Shown piece by piece: positions 5,063 through 63,000 of a stretch of DNA of 64,000 nt. Each line of letters opens with the position of its first letter. The stretch's first letter is position 1. Source of the DNA: Eubacteriales bacterium. Its GTDB lineage: Bacteria > Bacillota > Clostridia > Christensenellales > Aristaeellaceae. A program made the position numbers and the translations under genes. Under the pieces are notes generated by a model that saw only the letters and a program-made list of their open reading frames with translations, was not told the DNA's origin and made no database searches. The stretch spans positions 8,181 to 72,180 of the forward strand of contig JAVBRJ010000004.1 in assembly GCA_031548115.1 (NCBI GenBank), written 5' to 3'.

Positions 5063-6541
5063 ATGAAACTTAAGCAGTACGATTTCTGGTTTATCTGCGG
5101 TACCCAGGCCCTGTACGGAGACGAATGCATCCGCCAGGAGGAGGAGCATTGCCGCATCATGACCGAAGCCCTCAACAAGGACGAAAGCATCGTGGGCAAT
5201 ATCGTCTTTAAGGGCGCGGTGCTGGACAGCCAGTCCATCACCGACGTGATCATCCAAGCCAATGCCGACCCGGACTGCGCCGGCATCATCGCCTGGATGC
5301 ACACCTTCAGCCCCAGCAAAATGTGGATCAGCGGCCTGACCAAGCTGCAAAAACCCTACCTGCACTGGAACACCCAGTTTAGCCGGGATATCCCCTGGGG
5401 CTCCATAGACATGGATTACATGAACCTGAACCAGTCCGCCCACGGCGACCGGGAGCACGGCTTCATCGGCGCCCGCCTGCGCCTGCCCCGCAAGGTCATC
5501 GCCGGTCACTGGGAGGATGAGAAGATCCGCGGCCGCATGAGCCACTGGATGCGCAGCGCCATTGGCGCCCTGGAAAGCCGCAAGCTGAAGGTATGCCGCT
5601 TTGGCGACAACATGCGCGATGTGGCCGTCACCGAAGGCGATAAGGTGGAAGCCGAGATCAAGCTGGGCTGGAGCGTTAACACCTGGGGCATCGGCGATCT
5701 CATCGCCCGGGTGGATGCCGTTACCGAAGCCCAGATCGACGCAAAAATGGCCGAGTACAAAGAAAAATACGACCTCAAGACCGACAATATCGACGCGGTC
5801 CGCTACCAGGCCAAGGAAGAGGTGGCCCTGGAGCAGTTCCTCACCGAGGGCGGCTTCGGCGCTTTCACCGATACCTTCCAGGACCTGCAGCAGCTTAAGC
5901 AGCTCATGGGCCTGGCCACCCAGAACCTGATGGGCAAGGGCATCGGCTTTGGCGGCGAGGGCGACTGGAAGATCGCCGCTTTGGACCGCATCATGAAGCT
6001 GATGGCTCAGGGCCTTAATGGCGGCACCGCCTTTATGGAGGACTACAGCTATCACATGGAGCCCGGCAACGAAGGCATCCTGGGTGCCCACATGCTGGAG
6101 GTTGACCCGGATATCGCCGCCGATCGTCCCTGGATCGAGGTGCATCCCCTGGGTATCGGCGACCGCGAGGACCCTGCCCGCCTATGCTTCAACACTGGCG
6201 ACGGCAAAGCCATCGTAGCCACCCTTATCGACATGGGCGACCGGTTCCGCATGATCGTCAACGATGTGGAGGCCTGCTCCCCCTTCCAGGATATGCCCAA
6301 GCTGCCCACCGCCCGCGTTATGTGGAAGCCCCTGCCCGACCTGTCCACCTCCGCCGAGGCCTGGATCCTGGCTGGCGGCGCCCACCACACCGTGCTCAGC
6401 TATTCCCTGGATGCCGAGCATATGCGCGACTTCTGCGAGATCATGGGCATCGAATTTATCCACATCACCAAGGATACCACCATCCCACAGCTTAGCAAGG
6501 AGCTGCAGTGGAATGATATCGTGTGGAGAATGCGCGGGTAA
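5063..6541 (+). CDS. araA: L-arabinose isomerase
   Basis: Start ATG 5063 lies behind [28 protein letters not shown]..., [11 protein letters not shown] and [14 protein letters not shown] are characteristic AraA segments. About 492 aa. Confidence 0.95.
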
Positions 6542-6665
6542 CCAGGGCTTCGCCCTGGACCCTTCTTTGACTGCGCTACGCCCAGTCAAGACTTTCGTCA
6601 ATTGCAGCATGCCTGTGCCTGAAAAGATCCAGGTGCAGGCATGCCTTTTAAAAAGGAGAAAGCCT

Positions 6666-7370
6666 ATGCTTGAACAGCTAAAAAAAGAAGTCTATGAAGC
6701 CAATATGCTGCTGCCCCGGCATCAGCTGGTCACCTTCACCTGGGGCAATGTCTCCGGCATCGACCGGGAGGCGGGCCTGTACGTTATCAAGCCCTCCGGC
6801 GTGCCCTACGAGCAGTTGGCCCCAGAGGATATGGTGGTCATGGACCTGAACGGCCGCAAGGTGGAAGGCAAAATGAACCCCTCCAGCGATACCCCCACAC
6901 ATACGGTCCTGTACAACCGCTTTCCCGGCCTGGGCGGCATCGTGCACACCCACAGCCGCTGGGCCACCATCTGGGCCCAGGCCGGCCGAGAGATCCCCGC
7001 CTATGGCACCACCCACGCGGATTACATCTACGGCCCCGTGCCCATCACCCGGGCTCTCACCCAGGAGGAGGTGGAGCGGGCCTACGAAATGGAGACTGGC
7101 CATGTAATCGCCAGCCATTTCGAGGATAATGGCATCGACACCGCCGCTGTGCCCTGCGTGCTGGTCCGCAACCATGGCCCCTTCACCTGGGGCAAGGATG
7201 CCATCGAGGCCGTCCATAACGCCGTTGTCCTGGAGGAGGTCGCCATGATGGCCTGGCACACCGAGGCCCTCCCCGGCGGGCCCTCCGATGGCCGCCGCCT
7301 GCCGGAATACGTAAAAGAAAAGCATTACACCCGCAAGCACGGCCCTAATGCTTATTATGGACAGAAGTAG
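6666..7370 (+). CDS. araD: L-ribulose-5-phosphate 4-epimerase
   Basis: Start ATG 6666 lies behind AAAGGAGAAAG. The class II aldolase/epimerase pattern is present: [41 protein letters not shown]. 234 aa. Confidence 0.93.
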
Positions 7371-48752: not shown

Positions 48753-49313
48753 TTAGTTTCCTCCTCTTTGTCCTGTAGCATCTTTCTTGTCTGGCCGTGC
48801 TTTCCGTTTCTTTCGTCCCCAAAGCACGGTCCACGCCCCAAGGCCCACCCCGGCGGCCACGCACAGCGTGGGGATCAGCCAGCCAGTCTCTGGCTCGGCA
48901 GGCACCTCCGCCTCCGCGCTATAGCCCATGCTGGCTTCGGCTTCCGCCCCTGCGGGTTCCTCATAGGCGGCATCATAGGCACTATAGGCAGCCATTCTCC
49001 GGGTCTGCATCGGCTCCGGCTCCTGCGTTCTGGAGCGTATCGCCGGGCTGAATAAAACCGTGCCCACCATTAGCACCACAGCGGCCACGGCAGGCATAGC
49101 CCGCCGCCATAGCAGGGCACTTCCTCTGGGCCTGTCCTTTTGAGCCTTAAAAGCGGCCTTCTGCCTTACAGCACCGCGCCACCGGGTCTCAAAGCCTTCG
49201 CCGGGGGCCTGTTGATACGCGGAGGCCAGCGCTTTGTCCAGGGTATCGCGGATATCCTGCCCATTCAAGGTATTCCGGCCTGCTGGGGTCTTCGGCTGGT
49301 TTAAATCCTTCAT
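48753..49313 (-). CDS. Membrane protein, putative anti-sigma factor
   Basis: It lies immediately downstream of the ECF sigma gene. It has two hydrophobic segments (AVAAVVLMVGTVLF, LIPTLCVAAGVGLGAWTVLW). Its stop abuts the SIMPL start. I recognise no zf-HC2 motif. Confidence 0.5.
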   Translation of the reverse strand: MKDLNQPKTPAGRNTLNGQDIRDTLDKALASAYQQAPGEGFETRWRGAVRQKAAFKAQKDRPRGSALLWRRAMPAVAAVVLMVGTVLFSPAIRSRTQEPEPMQTRRMAAYSAYDAAYEEPAGAEAEASMGYSAEAEVPAEPETGWLIPTLCVAAGVGLGAWTVLWGRKKRKARPDKKDATGQRGGN

Positions 49314-49380: not shown

Positions 49381-49947
49381 TTATGGGGTTCCAGCGTCCT
49401 GCTGCTCCAAAAGCCTTCTCAGCCGTTCCTTGGCCCGGTTCAGCTTGCTTTTCACCGTGCCCTCCCGAAGGCCCAGGGCCTTGGCCATTTCCTCGTAGCT
49501 CATGTCCTGGCCATAGCGAAGGGTAAGGATAGCCTGCTGATCCTTGGGCAGCTTTTTGACAGCCTCCCATAGACGGCGGCCACTTTCCCGCCGCACGTAA
49601 GCCTCCTCCGGCCCTTCTTCCCGGCTGGGCGGCTCAAAGCCATCTTCCCTCAACTGCTCCATGGAGGCGGCCTCGCTGCGCCGGGCTGGACGTTTTAAGA
49701 TATCTAGGCAGGTGTTATGGGCAATGCGGAACAGCCATGTGGCCGTGCCGCTTTGCCCCATAAAGCGCGGCATAGCACGAAAGGCCCGCAGCATAGCCTC
49801 CTGGGCCGCGTCCTCCGCGTCGGCGGGGTGGCCCAGCATTTGCAGGCAGTGCCTGTACACCATCGGCGCATAAGGCCCGCAAAGAGCCTCAAAGGCCTCC
49901 ACCTCACCCCGGCGCGCCCGGCTCAGCAGTTGGCTTTGTTCTTCCAT
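49381..49947 (-). CDS. ECF-type RNA polymerase sigma-70 family factor
   Basis: Region 2 is YRHCLQMLGHPADAEDAAQEAMLRAF...WLFRIAHNTCLDILK. Region 4 is ILTLRYGQDMSYEEMAKALGLREGTVKSKLNRAKERLR. Confidence 0.9.
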   Translation of the reverse strand: MEEQSQLLSRARRGEVEAFEALCGPYAPMVYRHCLQMLGHPADAEDAAQEAMLRAFRAMPRFMGQSGTATWLFRIAHNTCLDILKRPARRSEAASMEQLREDGFEPPSREEGPEEAYVRRESGRRLWEAVKKLPKDQQAILTLRYGQDMSYEEMAKALGLREGTVKSKLNRAKERLRRLLEQQDAGTP

Positions 49948-50138: not shown

Positions 50139-50930
50139 TTGACCATTATCGACACTCACGCCCATATTTATCCTGACGCCATCGCCCAAAAGGCGGCTGC
50201 GTCCATCGGCGAATTCTATGATATCCCCATGTGCAAGGATGGCACTTTGGGCACCCTTTTGTCCCTTGGGGATGAGGCGGGCATCTCCCGTTTTCTGGTG
50301 CACAGCGTAGCCGTCACCTGGGAGCGGGTGCACAGCATCAATGATTATTTGATGCGCACCGTTTCGGAGCATCCCGACCGGCTGATCGGCTTTGGCACCA
50401 TGCACCCGGACCATCCCCAGGCCCGGGCGGAGCTGGAGCGCATCAAGGCCGGAGGCCTTAAGGGCGTGAAGCTGCACCCCGATTTTCAATATTTTGACCT
50501 GGACGATCCCAAAGCCATTGCCCTGTTTGAGGAAATGGCGGACCTGTCCCTGCCGCTGCTCACCCATATGGGCGACAAGCGCTATACCTACAGCCAGCCT
50601 GCCCGTCTGGAAAGGGCCCTTAAGGCCGTGCCCGATCTCCGGGTCATTGGCGCGCATTTGGGGGGCTGGTCCGTATGGGACGAGGCCTGGAAGACCCTGG
50701 CCGGGCATCCCAATGTGTGGGTGGACTGCTCCTCCAGCCTGTACGCCCTGGGGCCGGAAAAGGCGGCGGAGATCATCCGCCGCTATGGCACGGACCGGGT
50801 GTTCTTTGGCGCAGATTATCCCATGTGGAACCCCGTGGAGGAGGTGCAGCGGCTCTTGGCGCTGCCCTTGACCCCCGATGAGCAGGAGGATATCTTTCAC
50901 CGAAACTTCGAAGCCTTTATGCCTCTTTAA
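50139..50930 (+). CDS. Amidohydrolase family protein (Amidohydro_2 / TIM-barrel metal hydrolase)
   Basis: TTG start lies 8 nt after AAAGGAG. IIDTHAHIYP, GVKLHPDFQ, LLTHMG, IGAHLGG and FGADYPMW are present. Confidence 0.85.
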   Translation: MTIIDTHAHIYPDAIAQKAAASIGEFYDIPMCKDGTLGTLLSLGDEAGISRFLVHSVAVTWERVHSINDYLMRTVSEHPDRLIGFGTMHPDHPQARAELERIKAGGLKGVKLHPDFQYFDLDDPKAIALFEEMADLSLPLLTHMGDKRYTYSQPARLERALKAVPDLRVIGAHLGGWSVWDEAWKTLAGHPNVWVDCSSSLYALGPEKAAEIIRRYGTDRVFFGADYPMWNPVEEVQRLLALPLTPDEQEDIFHRNFEAFMPL

Positions 50931-52065
50931 CGGCGTCCTCGTCCTTGGGCGCATCCTTCGGCGCATCCTTCCGCCCCAAGGAGAAGGGCAGCAGCCAGCG
51001 GACGGCCTCCGTCCCCGCGCTAAAGAGCATCCCCAGCATTTTGCGAACATCGTGCCGGGCCTCCGGGTCCAGCTCCCGAAGCGCCTCCAGCATCCTGCGG
51101 GCGCTTTCGTGCCATTCGTGCACCAAGCCGTTGACGGTCTCTGCCTGGGAGGCGGCCACCACCTGGTACAGCGTGTCCACCAGCATCCTACGGGAGTCCA
51201 TGTCCATTTCCTTAAGCCAGGTATGGATAGCCTCATCCGTCAGCCTGCCGGTGAAATTCAGGTTCTCCAGGGCTATGAACGCTCCGTCCTTCACCTGCCA
51301 GGTCATGGCGTCATGCTGCAATATCCCCAGGCTCTTGCCATAGACCACAGTATAGACCGGGTGATAGTGCAGCAGCATGCCCACCACGCTGCTTTGTGGG
51401 ATATAGCTCTGTATCCGCTCCCGGACCAGCTCGTAGCCGATGCTGGCCAGGGTGTCCTCGTCCATGCCCGGGCCATCGAAGCTATATATCCGCTGGACCC
51501 TATCCCGCGTGTCCCCGTCGGCATTGGCTCCGGCGTATACGGCCAGGTTGCCGCCCTTGCTGTGCCCAGCTAGGAGCAGTGCGTGGCCGTTTTGGGCGGC
51601 GACCCGCTGGAGGTACTCCACCGCCTCCTGCTGAGAGGGCACCACCATAAAGGACATGTTCAGGTCCTCTTTCCAGCCCGCCAGGGTCAGATCCGTCCCC
51701 CGGTAGGCGATAGCCATCTGCCCCATAGGCATATCAAAGGCGCACACGGCAAACTGCATCTCCCGCTGTACGTCGATCGTATTAACATAATCATGGATCT
51801 CCCAGCGCTCATACCTGGGCTGGGTGGCGCACAGCTCGGTGAGGGCATAGCGCTTACGCTGGAAGGGGTCGGTAAAGCTGTCCGGGTAAGCGCCACTTAA
51901 AAATATCCACAGCTCCTGAATGGTGGCCCTTTCCCCGTGGTCCAGAAAGCCCTCCATGGGCATATATACGATCTGGGTCAATACCAGGGCATCCAGCTCG
52001 TCAAAGGGGCGCTCCTCCAGGGTCTTATGTCCTATGGCGACTACGTGATCCTCAATATTCGGCAT
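50917..52065 (-). CDS. DUF2974 (Mbeg1-like) alpha/beta-hydrolase family protein
   Basis: Start ATG 52065 lies behind AGGGGGA. IAYRGTDLTLAGWKEDL and the nucleophile elbow LAGHSKGGNLA are present. The 3' end overlaps the convergent amidohydrolase gene by 14 nt. Confidence 0.85.
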   Translation of the reverse strand: MPNIEDHVVAIGHKTLEERPFDELDALVLTQIVYMPMEGFLDHGERATIQELWIFLSGAYPDSFTDPFQRKRYALTELCATQPRYERWEIHDYVNTIDVQREMQFAVCAFDMPMGQMAIAYRGTDLTLAGWKEDLNMSFMVVPSQQEAVEYLQRVAAQNGHALLLAGHSKGGNLAVYAGANADGDTRDRVQRIYSFDGPGMDEDTLASIGYELVRERIQSYIPQSSVVGMLLHYHPVYTVVYGKSLGILQHDAMTWQVKDGAFIALENLNFTGRLTDEAIHTWLKEMDMDSRRMLVDTLYQVVAASQAETVNGLVHEWHESARRMLEALRELDPEARHDVRKMLGMLFSAGTEAVRWLLPFSLGRKDAPKDAPKDEDAVKEA

Positions 52066-52166
52066 TTGTATTTCCCCCTTTATACTTCCAGTATAACGGA
52101 TTGCATCCCGCCTGGCAATGGTGTATACTACTGTTAAGTCTTTCACACTGAAAGGAGACCTCTTGT

Positions 52167-52956: not shown

Positions 52957-54420
52957 TTATTCGGCCTCCAGCATTCCCAGCATGATCTCCCGCAGCTTCT
53001 CTGGGTCGGCCTTGCCCTTGGTGGCGGCCATGGCCTTGCCCATCAGCGCCTTTTCCACGCTCGTTTTGCCCCCCCGGTAGCTTGCTGCCATGTCCGGGTT
53101 CTCCGCGATCACCTGGGCCGCCGCCGCCCTCAGCGGGCCCGCATCCGTCATAGAGAACAGATCGTGCTCCGTAGCATAGGCCTCCGGGTCCTGATCGGCT
53201 TCAAACAGCGCCGCCAATATCTTCTTCCCGGTGGAGCTGTTCACCTGGGCCTGGGCCATCATGTCCGATAGCTTGGCCAGGTTTTCCGGCGCAATGGGCA
53301 GAGAATCCGCATCCCGCTCCCCGGTGTGCTCGGTATCCCGCAGGGTCAGCTGGGCAAAGACCTCTCCTAGTATCAGGTTTGCAGCGGCCACGGGGCTTTG
53401 GGCCGCCTGGGCTGCCTTTTCAAAATACTCCGCCAGCCACCTTTCGGCGGTCAGCTGCTCCGCCGCGTAGGCGGTGAGCCCGTAGTTCTCCATGTACTGG
53501 GCGCAGCGGGCATCTGGCAGGGTGGGGATGCGGCCCCGTATCTCCGCCAGCTCCTCCGGGGAAAGGTACACCTCCGGCAGGTCCGGCTCCGGAAAATAGC
53601 GATAGTCCGCGCTGTTTTCCTTCCGGCGCATAGAGATGGTCTTGCCGCTCTTCTGGTCGTAGCGGCGGGTCTCCTGCACGATGGTCTCCCCCGCGTCCAG
53701 CAGTGCCGCCTGCCGCTGGTACTCGGCGGCGATGGCCTTTTCTACGCTCTGGAAGGAGTTGAGGTTCTTCATTTCCGTGCGGATGCCAAAGGGCTCCCCG
53801 GGCTTTCTTAGGCTCAGGTTCACATCGCAGCGCAGGCTGCCCTCGTTCATCTTGCAATCGCTGACCCCGGTATAGGTAAGGATAGCCCGAAGCTTTCGCA
53901 GGTAGGCCACGGCCTCCTCGGCGCTGCGGATGTCCGGCTCCGACACGATCTCGATCAGTGGCACGCCGCAGCGGTTCATGTCCAAAAGGGTGCCGTTCAC
54001 GCTGTCGTGAAGCAGCTTGCCTGCGTCCTCCTCGATATGGATGCGGGTGATGCCCACCTTCTTCTCTCCCTGGCTGGTGTGGATGATCAGGTGACCGTTT
54101 TCGCAGATGGGCCGGTAAAACTGGCTGATCTGATACGCCTTGGGCAGGTCGGGGTAAAAATAATTTTTCCGGTCAAAGCGGCTTCGGTGGTGCACATGCG
54201 CATCCAGCGCCATTCCTGCCATGGCCGCCAGCCACAGGGCCTTACGGTTGAACACCGGCAGGGCCCCCGGCAGGCCCATGCACACCGGGCATACATGGGC
54301 GTTGGGCTCGGCCCCAAAGGCGTTCCTGCAGCTGCAAAAGACCTTACTTTCCGTGCGCAGCTCCACGTGGGTCTCCAGGCCGATGACCATTTCATAGGCG
54401 TGCTTTGATATCGTGGTCAT
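52957..54420 (-). CDS. gatB: Asp-tRNA(Asn)/Glu-tRNA(Gln) amidotransferase subunit B
   Basis: YEMVIGLETHVELRTESKVFCSC... 487 aa. The ATG overlaps the gatA stop (ATGA). Confidence 0.97.
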   Translation of the reverse strand: MTTISKHAYEMVIGLETHVELRTESKVFCSCRNAFGAEPNAHVCPVCMGLPGALPVFNRKALWLAAMAGMALDAHVHHRSRFDRKNYFYPDLPKAYQISQFYRPICENGHLIIHTSQGEKKVGITRIHIEEDAGKLLHDSVNGTLLDMNRCGVPLIEIVSEPDIRSAEEAVAYLRKLRAILTYTGVSDCKMNEGSLRCDVNLSLRKPGEPFGIRTEMKNLNSFQSVEKAIAAEYQRQAALLDAGETIVQETRRYDQKSGKTISMRRKENSADYRYFPEPDLPEVYLSPEELAEIRGRIPTLPDARCAQYMENYGLTAYAAEQLTAERWLAEYFEKAAQAAQSPVAAANLILGEVFAQLTLRDTEHTGERDADSLPIAPENLAKLSDMMAQAQVNSSTGKKILAALFEADQDPEAYATEHDLFSMTDAGPLRAAAAQVIAENPDMAASYRGGKTSVEKALMGKAMAATKGKADPEKLREIMLGMLEAE

Positions 54421-56024
54421 TTCCCGTTCCCTCCCTTCACCGCGTCATAGGGGCGCAGACCCTTGTTTACTTCATATCGGCTTTCATAGGCCGCCCCGAT
54501 GCTCAACAGATGCGCTAGGCTATCTCGCGCCCCCATCAGACTCAGGCCGATGGGCAGGCCCGTTTCCGTCAGCCCACAGGGCAACGACAGGGCAGGTAGC
54601 CCCGTGATATTGGCGGGGACGGTGTAGATATCCCCCATGTACATAGCCATGGGGTCGCTTTTTTAGCCCAGCGTGTAGGCGGCGGTGGGGGTCACCGGGG
54701 TCAGCAGGCCGTCGCAGTCCGCAAGGGCCTGATTCACCTCGTCCCTAAGGATCTCCCGGACCTCCTGGGCCTTTAAATAATACTGGTCCTGATAGCCGCT
54801 GGACAGGGCGAAGGTGCCCAGCAAAATGCGGCGCTTCACCTCCAGGCCAAAGCCCTCCTGACGGCTCTTGCGATATAGCTCGTCCAGGTCCCCATACTCC
54901 GCCCTGCGGTAGCCGTAGCGCACGCCATCGAACCGGGCCAGGTTGCTGGAGGCCTCCGCGCTGGAGATCACGTAATAGGCAGGCAGGGCCGCAGACAGCG
55001 AGGGAATGGATACCTCCTTCACCTCCGCCCCCATGGCCCGGAAGCTATCCGCCGCTTTAAGCAGCGCGTCCCTCACTTCGCAGTCCAAGCCCTCCCCAAA
55101 GCACTCCTTGGGGAGGCCTAAGCGCAGACCTTTCAGGGGCAGGTCCTGGGGACAGGGCGGGGCATCCGCCTCCATCGCTCCGAAGGCCCCGGCCAGGCTC
55201 CCATCGCTGGTGGCATCGTGCTCATCCTCTCCGGCGATAATATCCAGCACCAGGGCGGCATCCTGCACGGTCTTGGCGATAGGCCCGATCTGGTCCAGGG
55301 AGCTGGCAAAGGCGATGAGCCCATATCGGCTGACAGTGCCATAGGCGGGCTTCACCCCCGCCACCCCGCAAAAGGCCGCAGGCTGGCGGATACTGCCGCC
55401 GGTGTCGCTGCCTAGGGCCACGGGGGCCATCCCTGCCGCCACCGCCGCCGCGCTGCCCCCGGAGGAGCCGCCTGGCACGCAGCTAAGGTCCCAGGGGTTC
55501 TTGGTCTTTCCAAAATAGCTGGTCTCGGTGCTGCCGCCCATGGCGAACTCATCCATGTTCACTCGGCCCAAAATGGGCATCCCTGCGGCCTTAAGCTTTG
55601 TGATCACCGTCGCGTCATAGGGGGACACAAAGTCCTCCAGCATTCGGCTAGCACAGGCGCTCGTATGGCCCTTGATGACGATATTGTCCTTGATGGCGAT
55701 GGGAATGCCGTCCAGACGGCTCAGTGGCTTGCCTGCTGCCCGGCGGGCATCCGAGGCCGCCGCTTCCTTCAGGGCCTCCTCCTCAAACACCTCCAAAAAG
55801 GCGTTAATATTTTTATTCTGCAAGGCAATGCTTTCCAGGTAGGCCTTTACGATGTTAACAGAGGTGGTCTCGCCCCTGTCCAGCAGCCTGCACAGCGCCT
55901 CCACCGTCCGCCCGCACAGGGCCGGTATGGCTTCCCCCGCTTTTGGCGTTGCGTTGGCTGCTTCCGTTGCGTTGGCTGCTTTCGTTGCGTTGGCTGCCTC
56001 CGTTGCGTTCATTGTTTTCGTCAT
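54417..56024 (-). pseudogene. gatA: Amidotransferase subunit A with one in-frame TAA (54663-54665)
   Basis: The two ORF-track pieces (54663-56228 and 54417-54650) are in the same frame. The sequence reads ...[41 protein letters not shown]. Amidase signature GGSSGGSAAAVAAG is present. Start ATG 56024 lies behind AAGGAGGGG. Confidence 0.85.
55948..56009 (-). repeat. 18-bp tandem repeat x3.4 inside the 5' end of gatA
   Basis: The plus-strand units are GTTGCGTTGGCTGCTTCC, GTTGCGTTGGCTGCTTTC and GTTGCGTTGGCTGCCTCC, followed by a partial GTTGCGTT. They encode NATEAA-NATKAA-NATEAA-NAT. Confidence 0.85.
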
Positions 56025-56037
56025 GCGCGTCCCCTCC

Positions 56038-56322
56038 TTACTCAAAGGTCCTGGGCACGGTGATATACCGCCCGCTGGTAGTCCTGGCGTTCCCAAGCAC
56101 CGCCTGGGTGGATAGCCCTTCCTTCGCCACATCCTCCCGCATGGGGGCGGGCTGAGGCTTAGGCCGGTCCAAAGGCGCTTCCTTCTGGATAGCGCCCAGC
56201 GCGCCGGCAAAATCCACGATGCTGCCAAACTCGGCGGCCATGCGGCCCTCCTCCGCCTGGGACAGCGTCAGCATGGACAGCAGGGCGGCGGTCTCCACCG
56301 TCTCCTTGGAGCGCTTGCGCAT
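56038..56322 (-). other. gatC: GatC-like segment with its own internal RBS and ATG
   Basis: AAGGAGG lies 5 nt before ATG 56322. The 94-aa product is MRKRSKETVETAALLSMLTLSQAEEGRMAAEFGSIVDFAGALGAIQKEAPLDRPKPQPAPMREDVAKEGLSTQAVLGNARTTSGRYITVPRTFE. Its size and pattern (V..A.L..L.L...E......F..I..F...L, ...REDV..., ...Y..VPR..E) match GatC. Confidence 0.75.
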
Positions 56323-58116
56323 GTGCTCCTCCTTGGCGTCCTGGGCACTGTCCACGCCAAGCCTCAGGGCAGCCAGCTGGGCCGCGTCCACAAAATCCGG
56401 CGCACCGGTCAAAAAGCAGCTGGCATCCCGGACCTTGGGAAAGGCGATGACCTCCCGCAGGGAGCTGGCCCCTCGCAGCAGCATGCAAAGTCGATCCACC
56501 CCAAAGGCAAAGCCCGCATGGGGCGGCGTGCCAAAGCGGAAAGCATCCAGCAGGAAGCCGAAGCGCTCCTGGGCCTCCTCCTTGGAGAAGCCCAGGGCCG
56601 TAAAGACCTGGCTTTGGATGTCCCCCCGGTGGATACGGACGCTGCCGCTGCCCAGCTCCACACCGTTTAGCACCACGTCGTAGGCCTGAGACCGGACCAG
56701 GGGCTTGGTGGCATCATCCAGCATCTTATCCACATCCTCTAAAAAGGGCATGGTGAAGGGGTGGTGCATGGCGGCGTAGCGGCCCTCGTCCTTCTTGTAT
56801 TCAAACATGGGGAAATCCGTCACCAGGGCGAACTGGAAGGCGGTTTTGTCTATCAGGTCCATGATCTCCCCGCATCGGACCCGAAGACCCGATAGCACCC
56901 GGCGGACGGTGTCCAGCTCATCCGCGCAAAACAGCAGGAAGTCCCCGCTCTCCACACCCATTTTTTCTTCCAGGGCACGCAGGCCGTCCTCCGTAAAATA
57001 TTTGGGCAAGATGGAGTTGATCTCCCCGTTTTCCTTATACAGTATCCAGGCCATGCCCTTGGCCCCCAGCTTTAAGGCCAGGTCTGTCAGCTGGTCGATG
57101 GTGGAGCGGGTAAAGACGCTATTTGCGCCCTTGACGTTGATGCACCGCACCACGCCCCCGGCCTTGATGGCCGCGGTAAAGACGGAGAAGTGGGTTCCTC
57201 CGGCGATGTCCGATACATCCACAATGGGCAGCTGGAAGCGCAGGTCCGGCTTGTCGTTGCCGTAGCGGTCCATGGCCTCGTGCCAGGTCAGCCTGAGGAA
57301 AGGCCGCTCCAGCTCCTTCCCCATCACCCGCCGATACAGCCCCGTAAACAGCCCTTGCAGGAAGGCCAGCATATCCTCCTGGTCCACGAAGCTGCGCTCC
57401 ATGTCCACCTGGGTAAACTCCGGCTGGCGGTCTGCCCGCAGGTCCTCGTCCCGGAAGCACCGGGCCACCTGGTAATATTTCTCCACCCCGGATACCATCA
57501 GCAGCTGCTTGTAAATTTGAGGGCTTTGGGGCAGGGCGTAAAAGGTGCCGGGGTGCACCCGGCTGGGCACCAGGTAATCCCGGGCCCCCTCAGGGGTGGA
57601 TTTGCAGAGTATGGGGGTCTCCACCTGCAAAAAGCCGTCGTCATCCAGCATACGCTGGGTCTCCCGGATAAGCATGTGCCTGAACTTTAAGTTTTCGTAC
57701 ATTTGGGGCCTGCGCAGGTCCAGGTAGCGGTATTTCAGCCGCAGCTCATCCCGCACGGGCTCCTCGTCCGTCAGGGAGAAGGGCAGCGTATCCGCAGCGC
57801 TGAGCACCTCCATATGGTGGGCCTCCAGCTCGATCTCTCCCGTGGGCAGCGCCGGATTGTAGGTGCTCTCATCCCGTAGGCGCACCTTTCCCGTAATCCG
57901 CACGCAGCTTTGGTTTTTCAGTTTTTCGGCGGCAGCGAAGCTGTCTCCCGTGGCAATAGCCAGGTCGAACACCGTTTGCAACGTGCCCTCCCGGTCCCGC
58001 ACGTCCACGAAGATGATCCCGCCCATATCCCGTCGGGTCAGTGCCCAGCCGCAGATAGTGGCCTCCTGGCCGATGTGCATCCGGCGTAGCGCGCCGCAAT
58101 CGTGGGACTTAAACAA
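56038..58116 (-). CDS. aspS: Aspartate--tRNA ligase continuous in frame with a GatC-like C-terminal module (692 aa)
   Basis: Start TTG 58116 lies 7 nt after GGAGGG. The AspRS body runs from FKSHDCGALR...GWALTRRDMGGIIFVDVRDREG to ...IAFPKVRDASCFLTGAP. There is no stop before the GatC-like segment. The TAA at 56038-56040 overlaps the gatA RBS. Confidence 0.85.
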   Translation of the reverse strand: MFKSHDCGALRRMHIGQEATICGWALTRRDMGGIIFVDVRDREGTLQTVFDLAIATGDSFAAAEKLKNQSCVRITGKVRLRDESTYNPALPTGEIELEAHHMEVLSAADTLPFSLTDEEPVRDELRLKYRYLDLRRPQMYENLKFRHMLIRETQRMLDDDGFLQVETPILCKSTPEGARDYLVPSRVHPGTFYALPQSPQIYKQLLMVSGVEKYYQVARCFRDEDLRADRQPEFTQVDMERSFVDQEDMLAFLQGLFTGLYRRVMGKELERPFLRLTWHEAMDRYGNDKPDLRFQLPIVDVSDIAGGTHFSVFTAAIKAGGVVRCINVKGANSVFTRSTIDQLTDLALKLGAKGMAWILYKENGEINSILPKYFTEDGLRALEEKMGVESGDFLLFCADELDTVRRVLSGLRVRCGEIMDLIDKTAFQFALVTDFPMFEYKKDEGRYAAMHHPFTMPFLEDVDKMLDDATKPLVRSQAYDVVLNGVELGSGSVRIHRGDIQSQVFTALGFSKEEAQERFGFLLDAFRFGTPPHAGFAFGVDRLCMLLRGASSLREVIAFPKVRDASCFLTGAPDFVDAAQLAALRLGVDSAQDAKEEHMRKRSKETVETAALLSMLTLSQAEEGRMAAEFGSIVDFAGALGAIQKEAPLDRPKPQPAPMREDVAKEGLSTQAVLGNARTTSGRYITVPRTFE

Positions 58117-58144
58117 TGGTTTTCCCTCCGTTCCTTGTTGGGGG

Positions 58145-58431
58145 AGGGTCAAAAAAAGCCCTCGCCCCCATGTCGGGGCGAAAGGCTGCTATTACATACC
58201 TTCCGCGGTACCACCCGCGTTGAACGCCAAGGCGTTCCTCTCTTTGACGGAAACAGCGGCGTCCCGCGATTTCCCTACGCTATATCGGGCGCGCCCGTCC
58301 GCGTCTACTAGGCCAAAGCCGTTTGGGCGGATGCTCAGGGCTGTTCTTCCCCCCTGCGAGCCTGCCGCGCTTCCACCGTCCGCAGCTCTCTAAAAAGCTC
58401 CTGCAAAGGCTACTCTTCCCGTCATTGCCTT
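58145..58431 (-). promoter_or_regulatory. T-box riboswitch leader with apparent Asn (AAC) specifier, controlling aspS-gatCAB
   Basis: The T-box sequence CAACGCGGGTGGTACCGCGG is the reverse complement of 58203-58222. The terminator GCCTTTCGCCCC-GACAT-GGGGGCGAGGGC plus T7 lies at 58151-58186. The K-turn element is AATGACGGGAAGAGTAG, and AGAGAG and GGTGGAA distal elements are present. The specifier segment GGGAAGAACAGCCCTGAGCAT aligns with GGGACATTCACTTCTGAGCAT of the pheS leader, placing AAC (58343-58345) opposite TTC. Confidence 0.85.
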
Positions 58432-58437
58432 GGACGT

Positions 58438-58713: not shown

Positions 58714-61700
58714 TTAGAGATTATCCGTGTCGTTGCCTTCCGCGTTTTGGTACCGCTGCGTCCGGCTCACCCGGCGGCCTGTCGTAGGCGAAGCCGCCTC
58801 AGGCGCTGGGCTGTCCCCTGCGATGCCCCCAGCTAAAGGCTGCGCAAAGGGATTGCTGCTGGCCGGAGTGGCAGGGGTCGCGGCAGGGCTAGTGGACGCC
58901 GAAGCGCCGGGAGGCGTGGTGGGGGGCAGCGGCGCGGCGGGCTTCAGCGGGCCCTCGCTGCTTGCGTCCGTTTGGCCCAGGCTGCCCAGGGCCCCCATAA
59001 GGCTGCTGCCCGTTGCCGCAGGCCCGGTAGCCCTGAAGGGGTTAGTTGTGGCCGCAGGCCCGGTAGCCCCAAAGGGGTTGGTTGTGGCCGCAGGCCCGGT
59101 AGCTCCGCTATCTCCAAAGGGGCTGGGGCTACCCGCAGGCCGTGCGTATGGGCTTTGGCTGCCCGCTGCAACGCCGCCCAGGGGAGCGCCGAACACGCCC
59201 GGTGTGGTGCTATTTATGCCATTGCCGGTCCCGGTGCTGCCGAAGGGGTTCGCCTGGCTGCCCGTAGCGCCGGTGGGCCTTTGCTGGGTTCCGCCTACAG
59301 GCGGCGCGGCCACGGCCCGACGGGCGTAGGGGCTTTGCGCGCCTGCCGCGCCGGTGGCCCCGTTGGCAGTGCCGCTGCGCTTGGCGGCGGCGGCCCGGGC
59401 GGCGGCCTTGCGCTTCTTGTTCTGGTTAAGGGCGTAAGCGTACACGCCGCCTGCGCCGCCGATCAGCACGATGCCAGCACCGATCAGGCCCCAGGGGGAC
59501 GAACCGGTCTGGGTCTCCTTGCTCTCGTCATCATAGGTGATGGGGATCATCGTGCCGATGACAAAGGTCGCGGCAGGCTCCGTGGTGCTGGCCGTGCTGG
59601 ACGGGTCAGGGGTGGCGCTGGGGGCGGGAGTGGCATAGGGATCAAATGGTTCGTAGCTGGTGTTGATACCGCTGTTTTGCCACTGGCCCAGGTTCCAGTC
59701 CTCCAGCGAGGAGATCGCGCCTGCGGAGGCGCTGCCGCCGCCAGAGGTGCTGCCACCACCGGAGGTGCTTCCACCAGAGGTGCTACCGCCAGAGGTGCTT
59801 CCACCAGAGGTGCCGGAATTATTGGTCAGGCCTTGCAGATATTCGTTGCTGTTAACGAAGGTGCTCAGCTCTGTCAGGTTCATGTTCTTGAAGAAGTCGC
59901 CGCTGATCCAGCCGATGGTGCCGCCCTGGTTGATGTTGTACCAGACGGTCCCGTTCACTTCCTTTGTGCCGTAGATCAGCGCAAAGGCGTATTGGTTCAG
60001 CTTCTTGATCACACTGCCATTAGGCGTAAGGCGGAAATTGACCACGTTTTTGGTCACATAGCCGTAGCTGGACTTGGCATAGGGATCGTAGGGAGCGGGG
60101 GTATTGGCAGGGGAGGCGGTAGGCTTGGTGAGGGAATCCTCGTAGGCCTTCACTTCCCGGTCGCTCATCTTCCGCAGCTGATCGCCCCGGATATAGCCAT
60201 GCTGGCCGCCGTAGCTGCTGATATGCCAGGTGATGCCGTCCCTGAACAGCTGGCCGCTGACATACACCACCGTGTCGATAGGCAGGCGTGCCAGGATCTC
60301 TGCGTATTGGTCATTCACCCGGCGCAAGGGCGCGTCCCTGACCGTGGTGATGAAATATCCCATCACCTGCTCGGGGTCCGGCTCTACCACGGGTTCGGGC
60401 TCGGGATGGGCCTTCTTATAGGCCTCGATGAGGGCATTGGCCTCTTTATCTGTAATTCTGATGACCTGGCTGTCCAGCACAAAGCCGGGCTGCTGGTTAT
60501 CACCCAGCACTACCTGGGCGCCGCTCCAGAGGTTGCCGCCGTTCTCCACCTGACCGTTGATGAACAGCAGCGTTTTGTCCTCCAGCATGGTCATAATGGT
60601 GCTGTCGTCCAGCTTCACGGCGCTGCGCAGGGCCACCTTTCCCTTGGTGAGGGCATAGCCTCTGTAGATGTCCTTTTCCTTTTCCTGATACATAAAGTTC
60701 AGGTTGGCCAGCTCAGGCTTTTCTAGCTTGCCGTTTTTCACCGTTACATCATAGGATACGGAGCTGCCTGCGGTAAGCTCGTAATTTTCAGGTACATAAG
60801 CCGCATTGGGCGTAATGATATACGTGCCGTCGCCCTTTTTCAGGATCTCCGGGCCGCCGATGGGCTTGCCGGACTTATCCAGATAGTTCACCGTAATGAT
60901 GGCCGTCGGCACTTCCGGCAGGTCGTAGGTGAAGGTCACCTCTTTGGGGGTAGCTACGCCCTGGGTGTCTACCTTTACCTGTACGCTGGCTGGGCTGGTG
61001 AGCTTGTAGTCGGCGATCGCTTCTCCGCCCTCGGGGATAATGTCGTGGGTGCCCGGCTCCAGGTCCCGAGTCTGGGGGCTTATGATGTTAACGCCGTTTG
61101 CTTTATAGTATATCTCTATGGTGGCCTTTTTCACGGTCTCCCTCTCGTAAAGGAAGGTGACCGGGTTTACGCTGGCCTTGCCGTCCTTCACCTCCACCGT
61201 CACAGAGGCAGGGCCGGTCTCCGACAGCACATAGCCCTCCGGGGTGGGATAATCGCTGGCCTTGATCTCATGGGTACCCACGGCAAGCTGTATCGTCACA
61301 TCATCGGCCAGCTTGCCATTGAGGGTATCCTTAAACTCCAGGGTCACAGGGACCATCACGGCTTCCTTCTCATAATAGAAGGTGACCGTATCCGGGGTCG
61401 CCTTGCCGTCGCTACCGATCGTTACCTCTACGGAGGTGGGGCTGTCGGCGGCAAGCTTGTATCCGCTGGAGAGCAGGTCCTGATTGGGCCCTACCTGATA
61501 GGTACCCTCAGTCCTTGTCACCCGCTGGGGATCACCGATGGTTTTTTGGGTGGTCACGTCCACATGGTTGATGGTGAAGCTACCCTCGGCCGCTATCCGC
61601 TGGACCTGGAACACTACCTTGGCAGGGTCGGCCTTGCCGGCTGCGGATATCTTCACCGTGACGGCGCTGTCGTCCAACAGGGTATATCCCGGTACAAGCG

Positions 61701-63000
61701 CGGCATTGGCGTTAATGAGCATTTGCTCCCCTGCGGTGCAGGGCACAGGGCTATCCTCAAATATGGTCTTGCCCGTTCCGGCTTCCACGTATTGCACCGG
61801 CACCATTACCTCTGTGGGCTGCTCAGGCACCGGAGGCTCCTGACCGGCCTCCTCCGCGGCATGGGCATCGCTTTCCGCCTGGCTTAACAACTCCACGAAC
61901 TTCGCCATTACAAAGCATTCGGTGCCGTTGTAGGAGATAGCATACCATTTTTCATTGTTTACGGTCAGTTCGGTCTTGACCCAGCAATACTCGCCCTTTT
62001 TCACCTTGCTGAAAACAGCTTTATTGTCGGTGCTGGGATCGCCCCGGAAATTGACCTCAGTGGTCGTTTTCCCGTACAGGTTAATGGGGGTCTCCTGGGC
62101 CGCCGGGTCGGGGTCGGGATCGGGGTCAGGCTGCGGGTCCGGGTCCGGCTGTGGATCAGGATCGGGCTGCGGGTCCGGCTTCGGGTCGGGATCAGGCTGC
62201 GCTGCAGGCTTTTGGAAATAGAAATTCACCGCCTCAGGGTATGCGAAGCCGTCCTGGTCTACGTCCACTCTGCAGGACGAATCGCCCTGCAGGATATATC
62301 CCTCGGGCACCTTTTTGCTGTTGACTTTGATGATGTTCTCCTGGCCATAATGGCAGGATACCTTATCGGAATAAAAAGTCACGCCGTCGTTGTCGATATA
62401 GCTTACCGGCACGTCAACGGATACCTCTACCGGCTCGGGATCGGGCTGCGGGTCTGGGTCGGGCTGGGGATCGGGATCCGGCTGCGGGTCCGGGTCGGGC
62501 TGCGGGTCCGGGTCGGGCTGCGGGTCCGGATCGGGCTGCGGGTCCGGATCGGGCTGCGGGTCCGGGTCGGGCTGGGGACCAACGCTGGGCTCCGGCATCG
62601 GCTGGCTGGACAAATACAGGTAGTAGCTTTCGCCGGCTACCTCAAGGGGCGCTATGATCGCGCTGGGAACTGTAAAGTCCACAGCGTCGCCCCCCACGAT
62701 CGTTCCATTGTCAGGCATGTATGTATAGCCATTGTTCGAAATAATATCAAGCACAATGGGATAGCTAAACGCCTCCAGAGGCAGCGTCGCCCAGTACACT
62801 ACCTGCTGTTCATTCATTAAGGGCCCTACCGTCAAAGTCCGCTGATCACCCTCAGCCATCTGATAGGTAAGCAGCACAGTGGGTAAGGTGGTCAGATCCG
62901 GCACTGCCAAAGCAGCCAACGGCAACATCACCTGTACTGCCAAAAGCAGCAGGCAGGTCATCCATGCGGCGATCCGACGGCGTAAAATGCGACGTGTCAT
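58714..63000 (-). CDS. Giant type I membrane-anchored surface protein (1428 aa): signal peptide, PDPDPQ linkers, MucBP-like beta repeats, SH3b-like domains, one TM segment and a disordered cytoplasmic tail
   Basis: ATG 63000 lies behind AAGGAGG. The signal peptide is LLLLAVQVMLPLAALA. There are about seven repeats of the pattern V.Y.......I........G......N....VP.GY.L. There are four SH3b-like segments (e.g. VNFRGDPSTDNKAVFSKVKKGEYCWV...WYAISYNGTECFVMAKFV). The TM segment WGLIGAGIVLIGGAGGVYAYAL is followed by NQNKKRKAAARAAAAKR. Confidence 0.85.
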   Translation of the reverse strand: MTRRILRRRIAAWMTCLLLLAVQVMLPLAALAVPDLTTLPTVLLTYQMAEGDQRTLTVGPLMNEQQVVYWATLPLEAFSYPIVLDIISNNGYTYMPDNGTIVGGDAVDFTVPSAIIAPLEVAGESYYLYLSSQPMPEPSVGPQPDPDPQPDPDPQPDPDPQPDPDPQPDPDPQPDPDPQPDPDPQPDPEPVEVSVDVPVSYIDNDGVTFYSDKVSCHYGQENIIKVNSKKVPEGYILQGDSSCRVDVDQDGFAYPEAVNFYFQKPAAQPDPDPKPDPQPDPDPQPDPDPQPDPDPDPDPAAQETPINLYGKTTTEVNFRGDPSTDNKAVFSKVKKGEYCWVKTELTVNNEKWYAISYNGTECFVMAKFVELLSQAESDAHAAEEAGQEPPVPEQPTEVMVPVQYVEAGTGKTIFEDSPVPCTAGEQMLINANAALVPGYTLLDDSAVTVKISAAGKADPAKVVFQVQRIAAEGSFTINHVDVTTQKTIGDPQRVTRTEGTYQVGPNQDLLSSGYKLAADSPTSVEVTIGSDGKATPDTVTFYYEKEAVMVPVTLEFKDTLNGKLADDVTIQLAVGTHEIKASDYPTPEGYVLSETGPASVTVEVKDGKASVNPVTFLYERETVKKATIEIYYKANGVNIISPQTRDLEPGTHDIIPEGGEAIADYKLTSPASVQVKVDTQGVATPKEVTFTYDLPEVPTAIITVNYLDKSGKPIGGPEILKKGDGTYIITPNAAYVPENYELTAGSSVSYDVTVKNGKLEKPELANLNFMYQEKEKDIYRGYALTKGKVALRSAVKLDDSTIMTMLEDKTLLFINGQVENGGNLWSGAQVVLGDNQQPGFVLDSQVIRITDKEANALIEAYKKAHPEPEPVVEPDPEQVMGYFITTVRDAPLRRVNDQYAEILARLPIDTVVYVSGQLFRDGITWHISSYGGQHGYIRGDQLRKMSDREVKAYEDSLTKPTASPANTPAPYDPYAKSSYGYVTKNVVNFRLTPNGSVIKKLNQYAFALIYGTKEVNGTVWYNINQGGTIGWISGDFFKNMNLTELSTFVNSNEYLQGLTNNSGTSGGSTSGGSTSGGSTSGGGSTSGGGSASAGAISSLEDWNLGQWQNSGINTSYEPFDPYATPAPSATPDPSSTASTTEPAATFVIGTMIPITYDDESKETQTGSSPWGLIGAGIVLIGGAGGVYAYALNQNKKRKAAARAAAAKRSGTANGATGAAGAQSPYARRAVAAPPVGGTQQRPTGATGSQANPFGSTGTGNGINSTTPGVFGAPLGGVAAGSQSPYARPAGSPSPFGDSGATGPAATTNPFGATGPAATTNPFRATGPAATGSSLMGALGSLGQTDASSEGPLKPAAPLPPTTPPGASASTSPAATPATPASSNPFAQPLAGGIAGDSPAPEAASPTTGRRVSRTQRYQNAEGNDTDNL
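59015..59105 (-). repeat. 36-bp tandem repeat x2.5 (encodes ATGPAATTNPFG units) in the cytoplasmic tail
   Basis: The plus-strand units are GCCGCAGGCCCGGTAGCCCTGAAGGGGTTAGTTGTG and GCCGCAGGCCCGGTAGCCCCAAAGGGGTTGGTTGTG, followed by a partial copy. Confidence 0.8.
59725..59812 (-). repeat. 15-bp tandem repeats encoding (GGSTS)n
   Basis: The plus strand reads ...CCAGAGGTGCTGCCACCACCGGAGGTGCTTCCACCAGAGGTGCTACCGCCAGAGGTGCTTCCACCAGAGGTGCC. The protein reads GTSGGSTSGGSTSGGSTSGGGSTSGGGS. Confidence 0.8.
62104..62200 (-). repeat. Degenerate 18-bp repeats encoding (PDPDPQ/K)n, array A
   Basis: GGGTCGGGGTCGGGATCGGGGTCAGGCTGCGGGTCCGGGTCCGGCTGTGG... The protein reads PDPDPKPDPQPDPDPQPDPDPQPDPDPDPDP. Confidence 0.8.
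62433..62575 (-). repeat. 18-bp tandem repeats encoding (PDPDPQ)n, array B, about 8 units
   Basis: GGGCTGCGGGTCCGGGTC is reiterated with few substitutions. The protein reads QPDPDPQPDPDPQPDPDPQPDPDPQPDPDPQPDPDPQPDPDPQPDPEP. Confidence 0.85.

Follow-up and report, generated by a model that had tools for sequence, protein, structure and literature searches.

Organization of the gatA locus

The DNA analysed here, referred to below as the window, is a 64,000-nucleotide stretch of a metagenome-assembled genome (MAG) of an Eubacteriales bacterium (GCA_031548115.1, contig JAVBRJ010000004.1, positions 8,181 to 72,180). Its minus strand carries an operon composed of a T-box leader, an aspS-gatC fusion gene, gatA and gatB (Table 1), in which gatA, the gene for subunit A of the Asp-tRNA(Asn)/Glu-tRNA(Gln) amidotransferase, is interrupted by one in-frame TAA. 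Apart from this stop the operon is intact and belongs to a known type. The comparison with independent sequence data, in which the interrupted codon reads GAA, indicates with a probability of about 0.8 that the TAA arose by a substitution peculiar to the deposited genome, most likely through an error of assembly or consensus calling and at most as a rare allele, and that it does not represent the organism.

The gatA frame starts just past the aspS-gatC TAA at an ATG (56024) with AGGAGG located 7 nt on its 5' side, extends over 453 codons to the TAA (54665-54663) and continues for a further 81 codons to TGA (54419-54417). The minus strand around the stop reads GCC TAC ACG CTG GGC TAA AAA AGC GAC CCC ATG GCT ATG TAC ATG GGG GAT. 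On the coding strand the stop lies at the 5' edge of six consecutive A, as the earlier note on this DNA, made from the sequence alone, had remarked. The open reading frame (ORF) listed for the downstream piece (54650..54417, 77 aa) begins at the fifth codon past the TAA. The genomic context is that of gatA on both sides; the ORF before it ends in a GatC domain, and the gene after it, gatB, overlaps its stop.

The 5' end of gatA contains an 18-bp tandem repeat in 3.5 copies (55947-56009, minus strand), which is identical in the independent contig described below. It encodes an NAT(E/K)AA N-terminal extension of about 35 residues that is absent from homologues of about 500 aa.

Conservation of GatA around the in-frame stop

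Translated through the stop, GatA matches the NCBIfam model TIGR00132 with 588.1 bits (cutoff 481.1) over residues 47-517, a range that spans both pieces, and aligns end to end with GatA of Staphylococcus aureus (PDB 2df4; E=6.5e-146). The description given beforehand, of a single in-frame TAA and of two pieces sharing one frame, was correct, also in its coordinates. In the alignment with 2df4, the segment LGEE...DP..MY.ND of the S. aureus protein faces LG*K.DP..MY.GD of the window protein. The wider alignment consisted of 114 homologues from a protein search, chosen at a length of at least 470 aa. The column of the stop holds Glu in 92 of them, Gln in 8, Asp in 7, Ala in 6 and Ser in 1, and the columns beside it are strongly conserved (G453, K455, D457, P458, M461, Y462 and D465), Asp465 being near-invariant (113/114). 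The GatA consensus given in the earlier note, with Glu at the place of the stop, was borne out by these relatives, as was the conserved KxDPxxMY...D motif that follows, and the downstream piece proved to be GatA-like.

The amidase-signature motifs IAIKDN, GGSSGG and TGGSIRQP are all located in the N-terminal piece and align identically with those of 2df4. The catalytic residues of these enzymes are the Lys of IxIKDN, the cis-Ser of GGSSGG and the nucleophilic Ser of TGGSIRQPA. A truncated GatA of 453 aa would retain all three of these motifs and would lose the conserved C-terminal core. Asp465, which belongs to the lost part, aligns with Asp425 of S. aureus GatA, which we take to be a glutamine-binding residue.

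Independent sequence data for gatA

The independent data come from sequencing runs of 2023, namely X1 (SRR23967709), an invertebrate gut metagenome and the sole sizeable DNA run found with the locus, and the two RNA runs listed, X2 and X3, of which X2 is a metatranscriptome of the same study as X1 and derives from a different sample. X1 and X2 were inspected as Logan contigs, i.e. at contig level rather than at read level. X1 contains 0.96 of the sampled words of the gatA stretch, the missing share being about what the three gatA substitutions described below would remove, and X2 contains part of the stretch.

The Logan contig SRR23967709_2676984 (hereafter L001; 3378 bp, word depth 11.3) covers positions 54155-57532. 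Three bases, and no more, set it apart from the window (54665, 54673 and 54904), and all of them are inside gatA. It reads GAA at the stop codon, and its uninterrupted frame encodes an intact GatA of 535 aa (P0121) with the sequence AAYKLGEKSDP, i.e. the family consensus. At position 54665 the other letter accounts for the total depth of X1 (11.3/11.3), and the window allele was found on no X1 contig. A single G-to-T change from GAA to TAA with no frameshift, as had been proposed from the window alone, is exactly the difference observed at this codon. The earlier note had also named a sense codon in the reads as the finding that would speak against a real break; at contig level, SRR23967709 has that sense codon.

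Further searches were directed at the window allele and its product. Between positions 54636 and 54702 every 31-mer of the window includes a private base, and the two such words that were sampled occurred in no indexed run. A pattern scan with a gatA 46-mer carrying N at both variable sites gave no match in genome or metagenome contigs, and exact-protein look-ups for the truncated GatA and for GatB returned no record, the window's own record lying possibly outside the look-up. The 453-aa product of the window (P0001, taken from an NCBI record whose contig measures 76,038 bp) shares its 90% cluster with one other member, the full-length P0121, and the next-closest GatA is only 71% identical. 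Contigs of X2 match gatA without a single difference over 54428-54650 and 55573-55836, two stretches that flank the stop, the variable sites themselves lying outside the matches. This is consistent with transcription on either side of the stop; DNA carry-over is also possible.

The same contig bears on the idea, raised in the earlier note, of a functional split GatA, in which an N-terminal piece of 453 aa and a C-terminal piece of 77 aa, the latter restarted at ATG 54650, would be produced separately and then assemble. An ATG does lie five codons past the stop in a frame open to the normal end of gatA, and all three catalytic motifs are within the N-terminal piece. However, no purine-rich Shine-Dalgarno sequence precedes this ATG (the sequence there is GGGCTAAAAAAGCGACCCCATG), all 114 aligned homologues, which were selected at a length of at least 470 aa, are uninterrupted here, the nearest relative being 71% identical, and the independent contig of the same organism has an unsplit gene. 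A split GatA is regarded as very improbable.

It is hardly credible that full-length GatA is made from a TAA-containing mRNA through programmed readthrough or reassignment of TAA. The stop does stand exactly at a sense position, with a conserved frame downstream, but reassignment is contradicted because TAA ends genes normally in the same operon (aspS-gatC at 56038 and gatB at 52957), as it also does in typA (42310) and about 20 other long ORFs of the window, where gatA is the sole gene seen with an in-frame TAA interruption. No tRNA gene was found in the 64-kb window, so that no suppressor tRNA lies nearby, and the independent contig simply carries GAA. The view that TAA is a normal stop here and reassignment unlikely was thus upheld, and low-level readthrough, listed beside it as an option, found no support. 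Slippage of transcription or translation on the six A was also considered and rejected; a run of this length is too short for it, and a stop at the 5' edge would be left in place.

Private substitutions across the window

The X1 contigs were compared with the window over positions 4001-64000, contigs of other organisms being set aside. The main contigs differ from the window by five substitutions and by a 12-bp difference in repeat copy number at 48960, and are otherwise identical. The stop is one of three private substitutions in gatA and of five in about 60 kb, a point that lay outside the earlier note. Their density is about one per 10 kb, or roughly 1e-4 per base.

All five substitutions are transversions (C>A, T>G, G>C, T>G and A>C, from contig to window on the plus strand) and all five are nonsynonymous. 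Natural polymorphism, by comparison, is transition-rich and, at conserved sites, mostly synonymous. In four of the five cases the window has a stop or a residue foreign to the family where the run or runs keep the conserved residue or residue class. Within the GatA alignment, column 451 is occupied by R, K or P in 108 of the 114 homologues and column 374 by A, V or T in all 114; the Thr and the Arg that the window has at these places occur in none. The segment altered in typA reads LEFIDDDEL in all solved BipA structures. X2 sides with X1 against the window at both private sites that it covers, 42422 (depth 23.6) and 5774 (depth 68.9).

The typA change and the change at 5774 are contradicted by two independent runs, and the private changes of this assembly are for this reason not generally real. 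Since five out of five are transversions and all change an amino acid, they point to a problem of assembly quality rather than to gatA biology. They look like unselected, non-biological base changes.

Table 1. Features of the gatA operon and private substitutions of the window
Feature	Position	Strand	Description
T-box leader upstream of aspS-gatC	58171..58434	-	RF00230, 97.1 bits (gathering threshold 93); model positions 1-219, full length
aspS-gatC fusion (aspartyl-tRNA synthetase with C-terminal GatC domain)	56038..58152	-	704-codon ORF, ends with TAA
gatA (Asp-tRNA(Asn)/Glu-tRNA(Gln) amidotransferase subunit A)	54417..56024	-	535 codons read through; one TAA
In-frame TAA of gatA	54663..54665	-	GAA (Glu454) in the independent contig; plus strand 54665 is A in the window, C in the contig
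gatB, intact	52957..54420	-	PRK05477, 607 bits (residues 8-485); 4-nt overlap (ATGA) with the gatA stop
Private substitution in gatA	54904	-	window AGG (Arg374), L001 ACG (Thr)
Private substitution in gatA	54673	-	window ACG (Thr451), L001 AAG (Lys)
Private substitution in typA/bipA	42422	-	window GCG (Ala, LAFIDDDEL), X1 and X2 GAG (Glu)
Private substitution	5774	+	window CTC (Leu), X1 and X2 ATC (Ile)

Two other sources of the gatA changes were considered and discarded. A chimeric assembly, with alleles taken from the gatA of another organism, disagrees with a contig of another species (110x) over 54906-54945, which has G at 54904 like X1, and with the homologues, none of which has the window residues. 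As to a diversity-generating retroelement, none was seen in the vicinity, and the changes lack specificity for adenine.

Two regions showed variation of another kind. At 48960-48985 the X1 contig has one more 12-bp unit (TCATAGGCGGCA) than the window, an in-frame copy-number difference of four codons within the ORF 49313..48753 (minus strand). This ORF encodes a putative anti-sigma-like protein with no family match and lies downstream of the gene for an extracytoplasmic function (ECF) sigma factor (49947..49381). Over 5300-6800 the X1 contigs are short and partly of half depth (about 6 versus 11), and X2 has several variants in or near this highly expressed region (5098-5125, 5344-5353 and 6406-6407), a pattern suggestive of true polymorphism among strains or of a related organism.

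Origin of the stop codon

The stop could in principle be a real and very recent nonsense allele, i.e. a nascent pseudogene, the deposited genome being derived from a subpopulation or sample with an inactivated T-box(Asn)-controlled gatA. The bacterium could tolerate such an allele if it had an asparaginyl-tRNA synthetase, Asn supplied by the gut or a second gatCAB, the last being present in Clostridium acetobutylicum; redundant sets of gatCAB and aspS occur in Clostridia according to Saad et al. 2012, as cited in PMC4206432. The public NCBI record does encode the truncated product, which would presumably be inactive after the loss of the conserved C-terminal 81 residues with the near-invariant Asp465, and the clustering of three private nonsynonymous changes in gatA is what might follow a loss of function. 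This explanation is nevertheless unlikely. A disruption that recurs in independent data, as expected of a pseudogene, was found neither on the X1 contig, where GAA has the full depth, nor among the indexed runs, in which the sampled 31-mers of the TAA allele do not occur. The private changes outside gatA are contradicted by two runs, relaxed selection at a background divergence of about 1e-4 cannot yield three changes in 1.6 kb, and transversions in five cases out of five are atypical of natural mutation. Moreover, gatB, aspS-gatC and the T-box are untouched.

In a more specific form, the TAA, Thr451 and Arg374 would all be real and linked in a subpopulation of the gut bacterium, and would represent a natural, very recent knockout of T-box(Asn)-controlled GatA. 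This is quite doubtful. If it were true, the tRNA-dependent Asn pathway would be dispensable or selected against in the invertebrate gut, and a spectrum made up of transversions alone would be a hint of a mutator lineage of the oxidative-damage (mutT/mutY-like) type. Even a real stop taken by itself would be a modest example of the recent loss of a redundant transamidation operon.

The explanation that we favour is an error private to the assembly. The independent contig has GAA; the remaining private differences are of like nature, and for two of them both runs disagree with the window. In the sequenced population gatA would then be an intact gene of 535 codons with GAA (Glu) at the stop codon, and would form the third cistron of a normal T-box(Asn)-controlled aspS-gatC / gatA / gatB operon for tRNA-dependent charging of Asn and possibly Gln. 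The technical cause may lie in low-coverage k-mer paths or in one poor read pair over 54665-54904; the three gatA changes span 240 bp, which a single poor read pair or a low-coverage path through the assembly graph would fit. The earlier note had favoured a very recent event or an error, and of these the evidence points to an error or a non-representative variant.

Several points weigh against this explanation. Logan contigs drop rare variants, and in X1, seen as contigs, a minority TAA allele is possible. The deposited genome was perhaps not assembled from X1, in which case the allele could be real in an unindexed sample. Standard short-read assemblers do not commonly make consensus errors at a depth of about 11x. 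Uniform random error does not predict that three of five private changes lie within 240 bp of gatA (P about 3e-4, for 1.6 kb of about 50 kb); such clustering needs a local cause, which could in principle be biological.

The importance of the stop lies chiefly in what it says about data quality. Annotation pipelines would call gatA a pseudogene, and a loss of the indirect Asn/Gln-tRNA pathway could be wrongly inferred. With private, unselected transversions at a rate of about one in 10 kb, equal suspicion is due to any other gene of this assembly that looks defective.

The surrounding operon and neighbouring genes

The aspS-gatC product matches PRK00476 with 789 bits over residues 14-601 and the gatC model TIGR00135 with 42.6 bits over residues 616-704. 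The T-box, aspS-gatC and gatB all match their families, in agreement with the earlier statement that the rest of the operon looks intact. The specifier loop of the T-box, taken from the Rfam alignment, is GAA-G-AAC-A (GAAGAACA), with a predicted AAC (Asn) specifier followed by the usual purine.

In the specifier loop a GAA (Glu) triplet overlaps the AAC. The overlapping triplets recall the "two-codon T-box" that is reportedly found in C. acetobutylicum.

The same layout is present in the relative with 71% identity, an Eubacteriales MAG (GCA_028693055.1), which encodes an aspartyl-tRNA synthetase (AspRS)-GatC fusion of 693 aa, a GatA of 503 aa and a GatB of 483 aa. Its T-box has the same GAAGAACA, at about 1370-1380.

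The flanking genes annotated in the window are prfC, typA and those for an ABC exporter, an ECF sigma factor and an Mbeg1-like protein. The last of these (PF11187, 247 bits; 50917-52146, minus strand) is located between gatB and the ECF sigma module. An ORF of 1428 codons (58714-63000, minus strand) has no NCBIfam match; its matches in Pfam are limited to a weak one to a repetitive protein (PARP-like acidic repeat) and a faint one to SH3_3. It is poorly covered by Logan contigs at an identity of at least 97%, and these features suggest a repetitive or variable surface protein.

Comparison with known systems

The window gene resembles GatA of the bacterial GatCAB complex (TIGR00132; S. aureus 2df4/2f2a, Aquifex 3h0l and Thermotoga 3al0) in (i) a match above the curated cutoff; (ii) the amidase-signature motifs; (iii) the place between gatC and gatB; (iv) the conservation of Glu, Lys and the DP..MY..D motif around the break. 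In contrast to these proteins, the window copy has a TAA at Glu454, Thr451, Arg374 and the N-terminal extension of about 35 residues.

A T-box(Asn)-controlled aspS-gatCAB transamidation operon has been described for C. acetobutylicum (Saad et al. 2012, J Biol Chem 287:20382, as cited in PMC4206432). As far as that operon is presented there, the two share an AAC-specifier T-box leader followed by aspS, gatC, gatA and gatB on one strand, and the difference relates to gatC, which in the window is fused to the 3' end of aspS in one ORF of 704 codons. This fusion has the domain order and the length of the bifunctional AspRS/GatC (NCBIfam NF009460, PRK12820), the match spanning residues 19-699. However, its score of 603 bits is far below the cutoff of 1379, which places the window fusion outside that equivalog as an analogous or divergent form.

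The private substitutions, in turn, can be compared with the consensus errors of low-coverage MAGs. They differ from such errors in the cluster of three changes within 240 bp. They are like them in being isolated substitutions private to one assembly and contradicted by independent assemblies of the same or sibling samples, and in showing no selective filtering, the window changes being nonsynonymous throughout and striking conserved residues.

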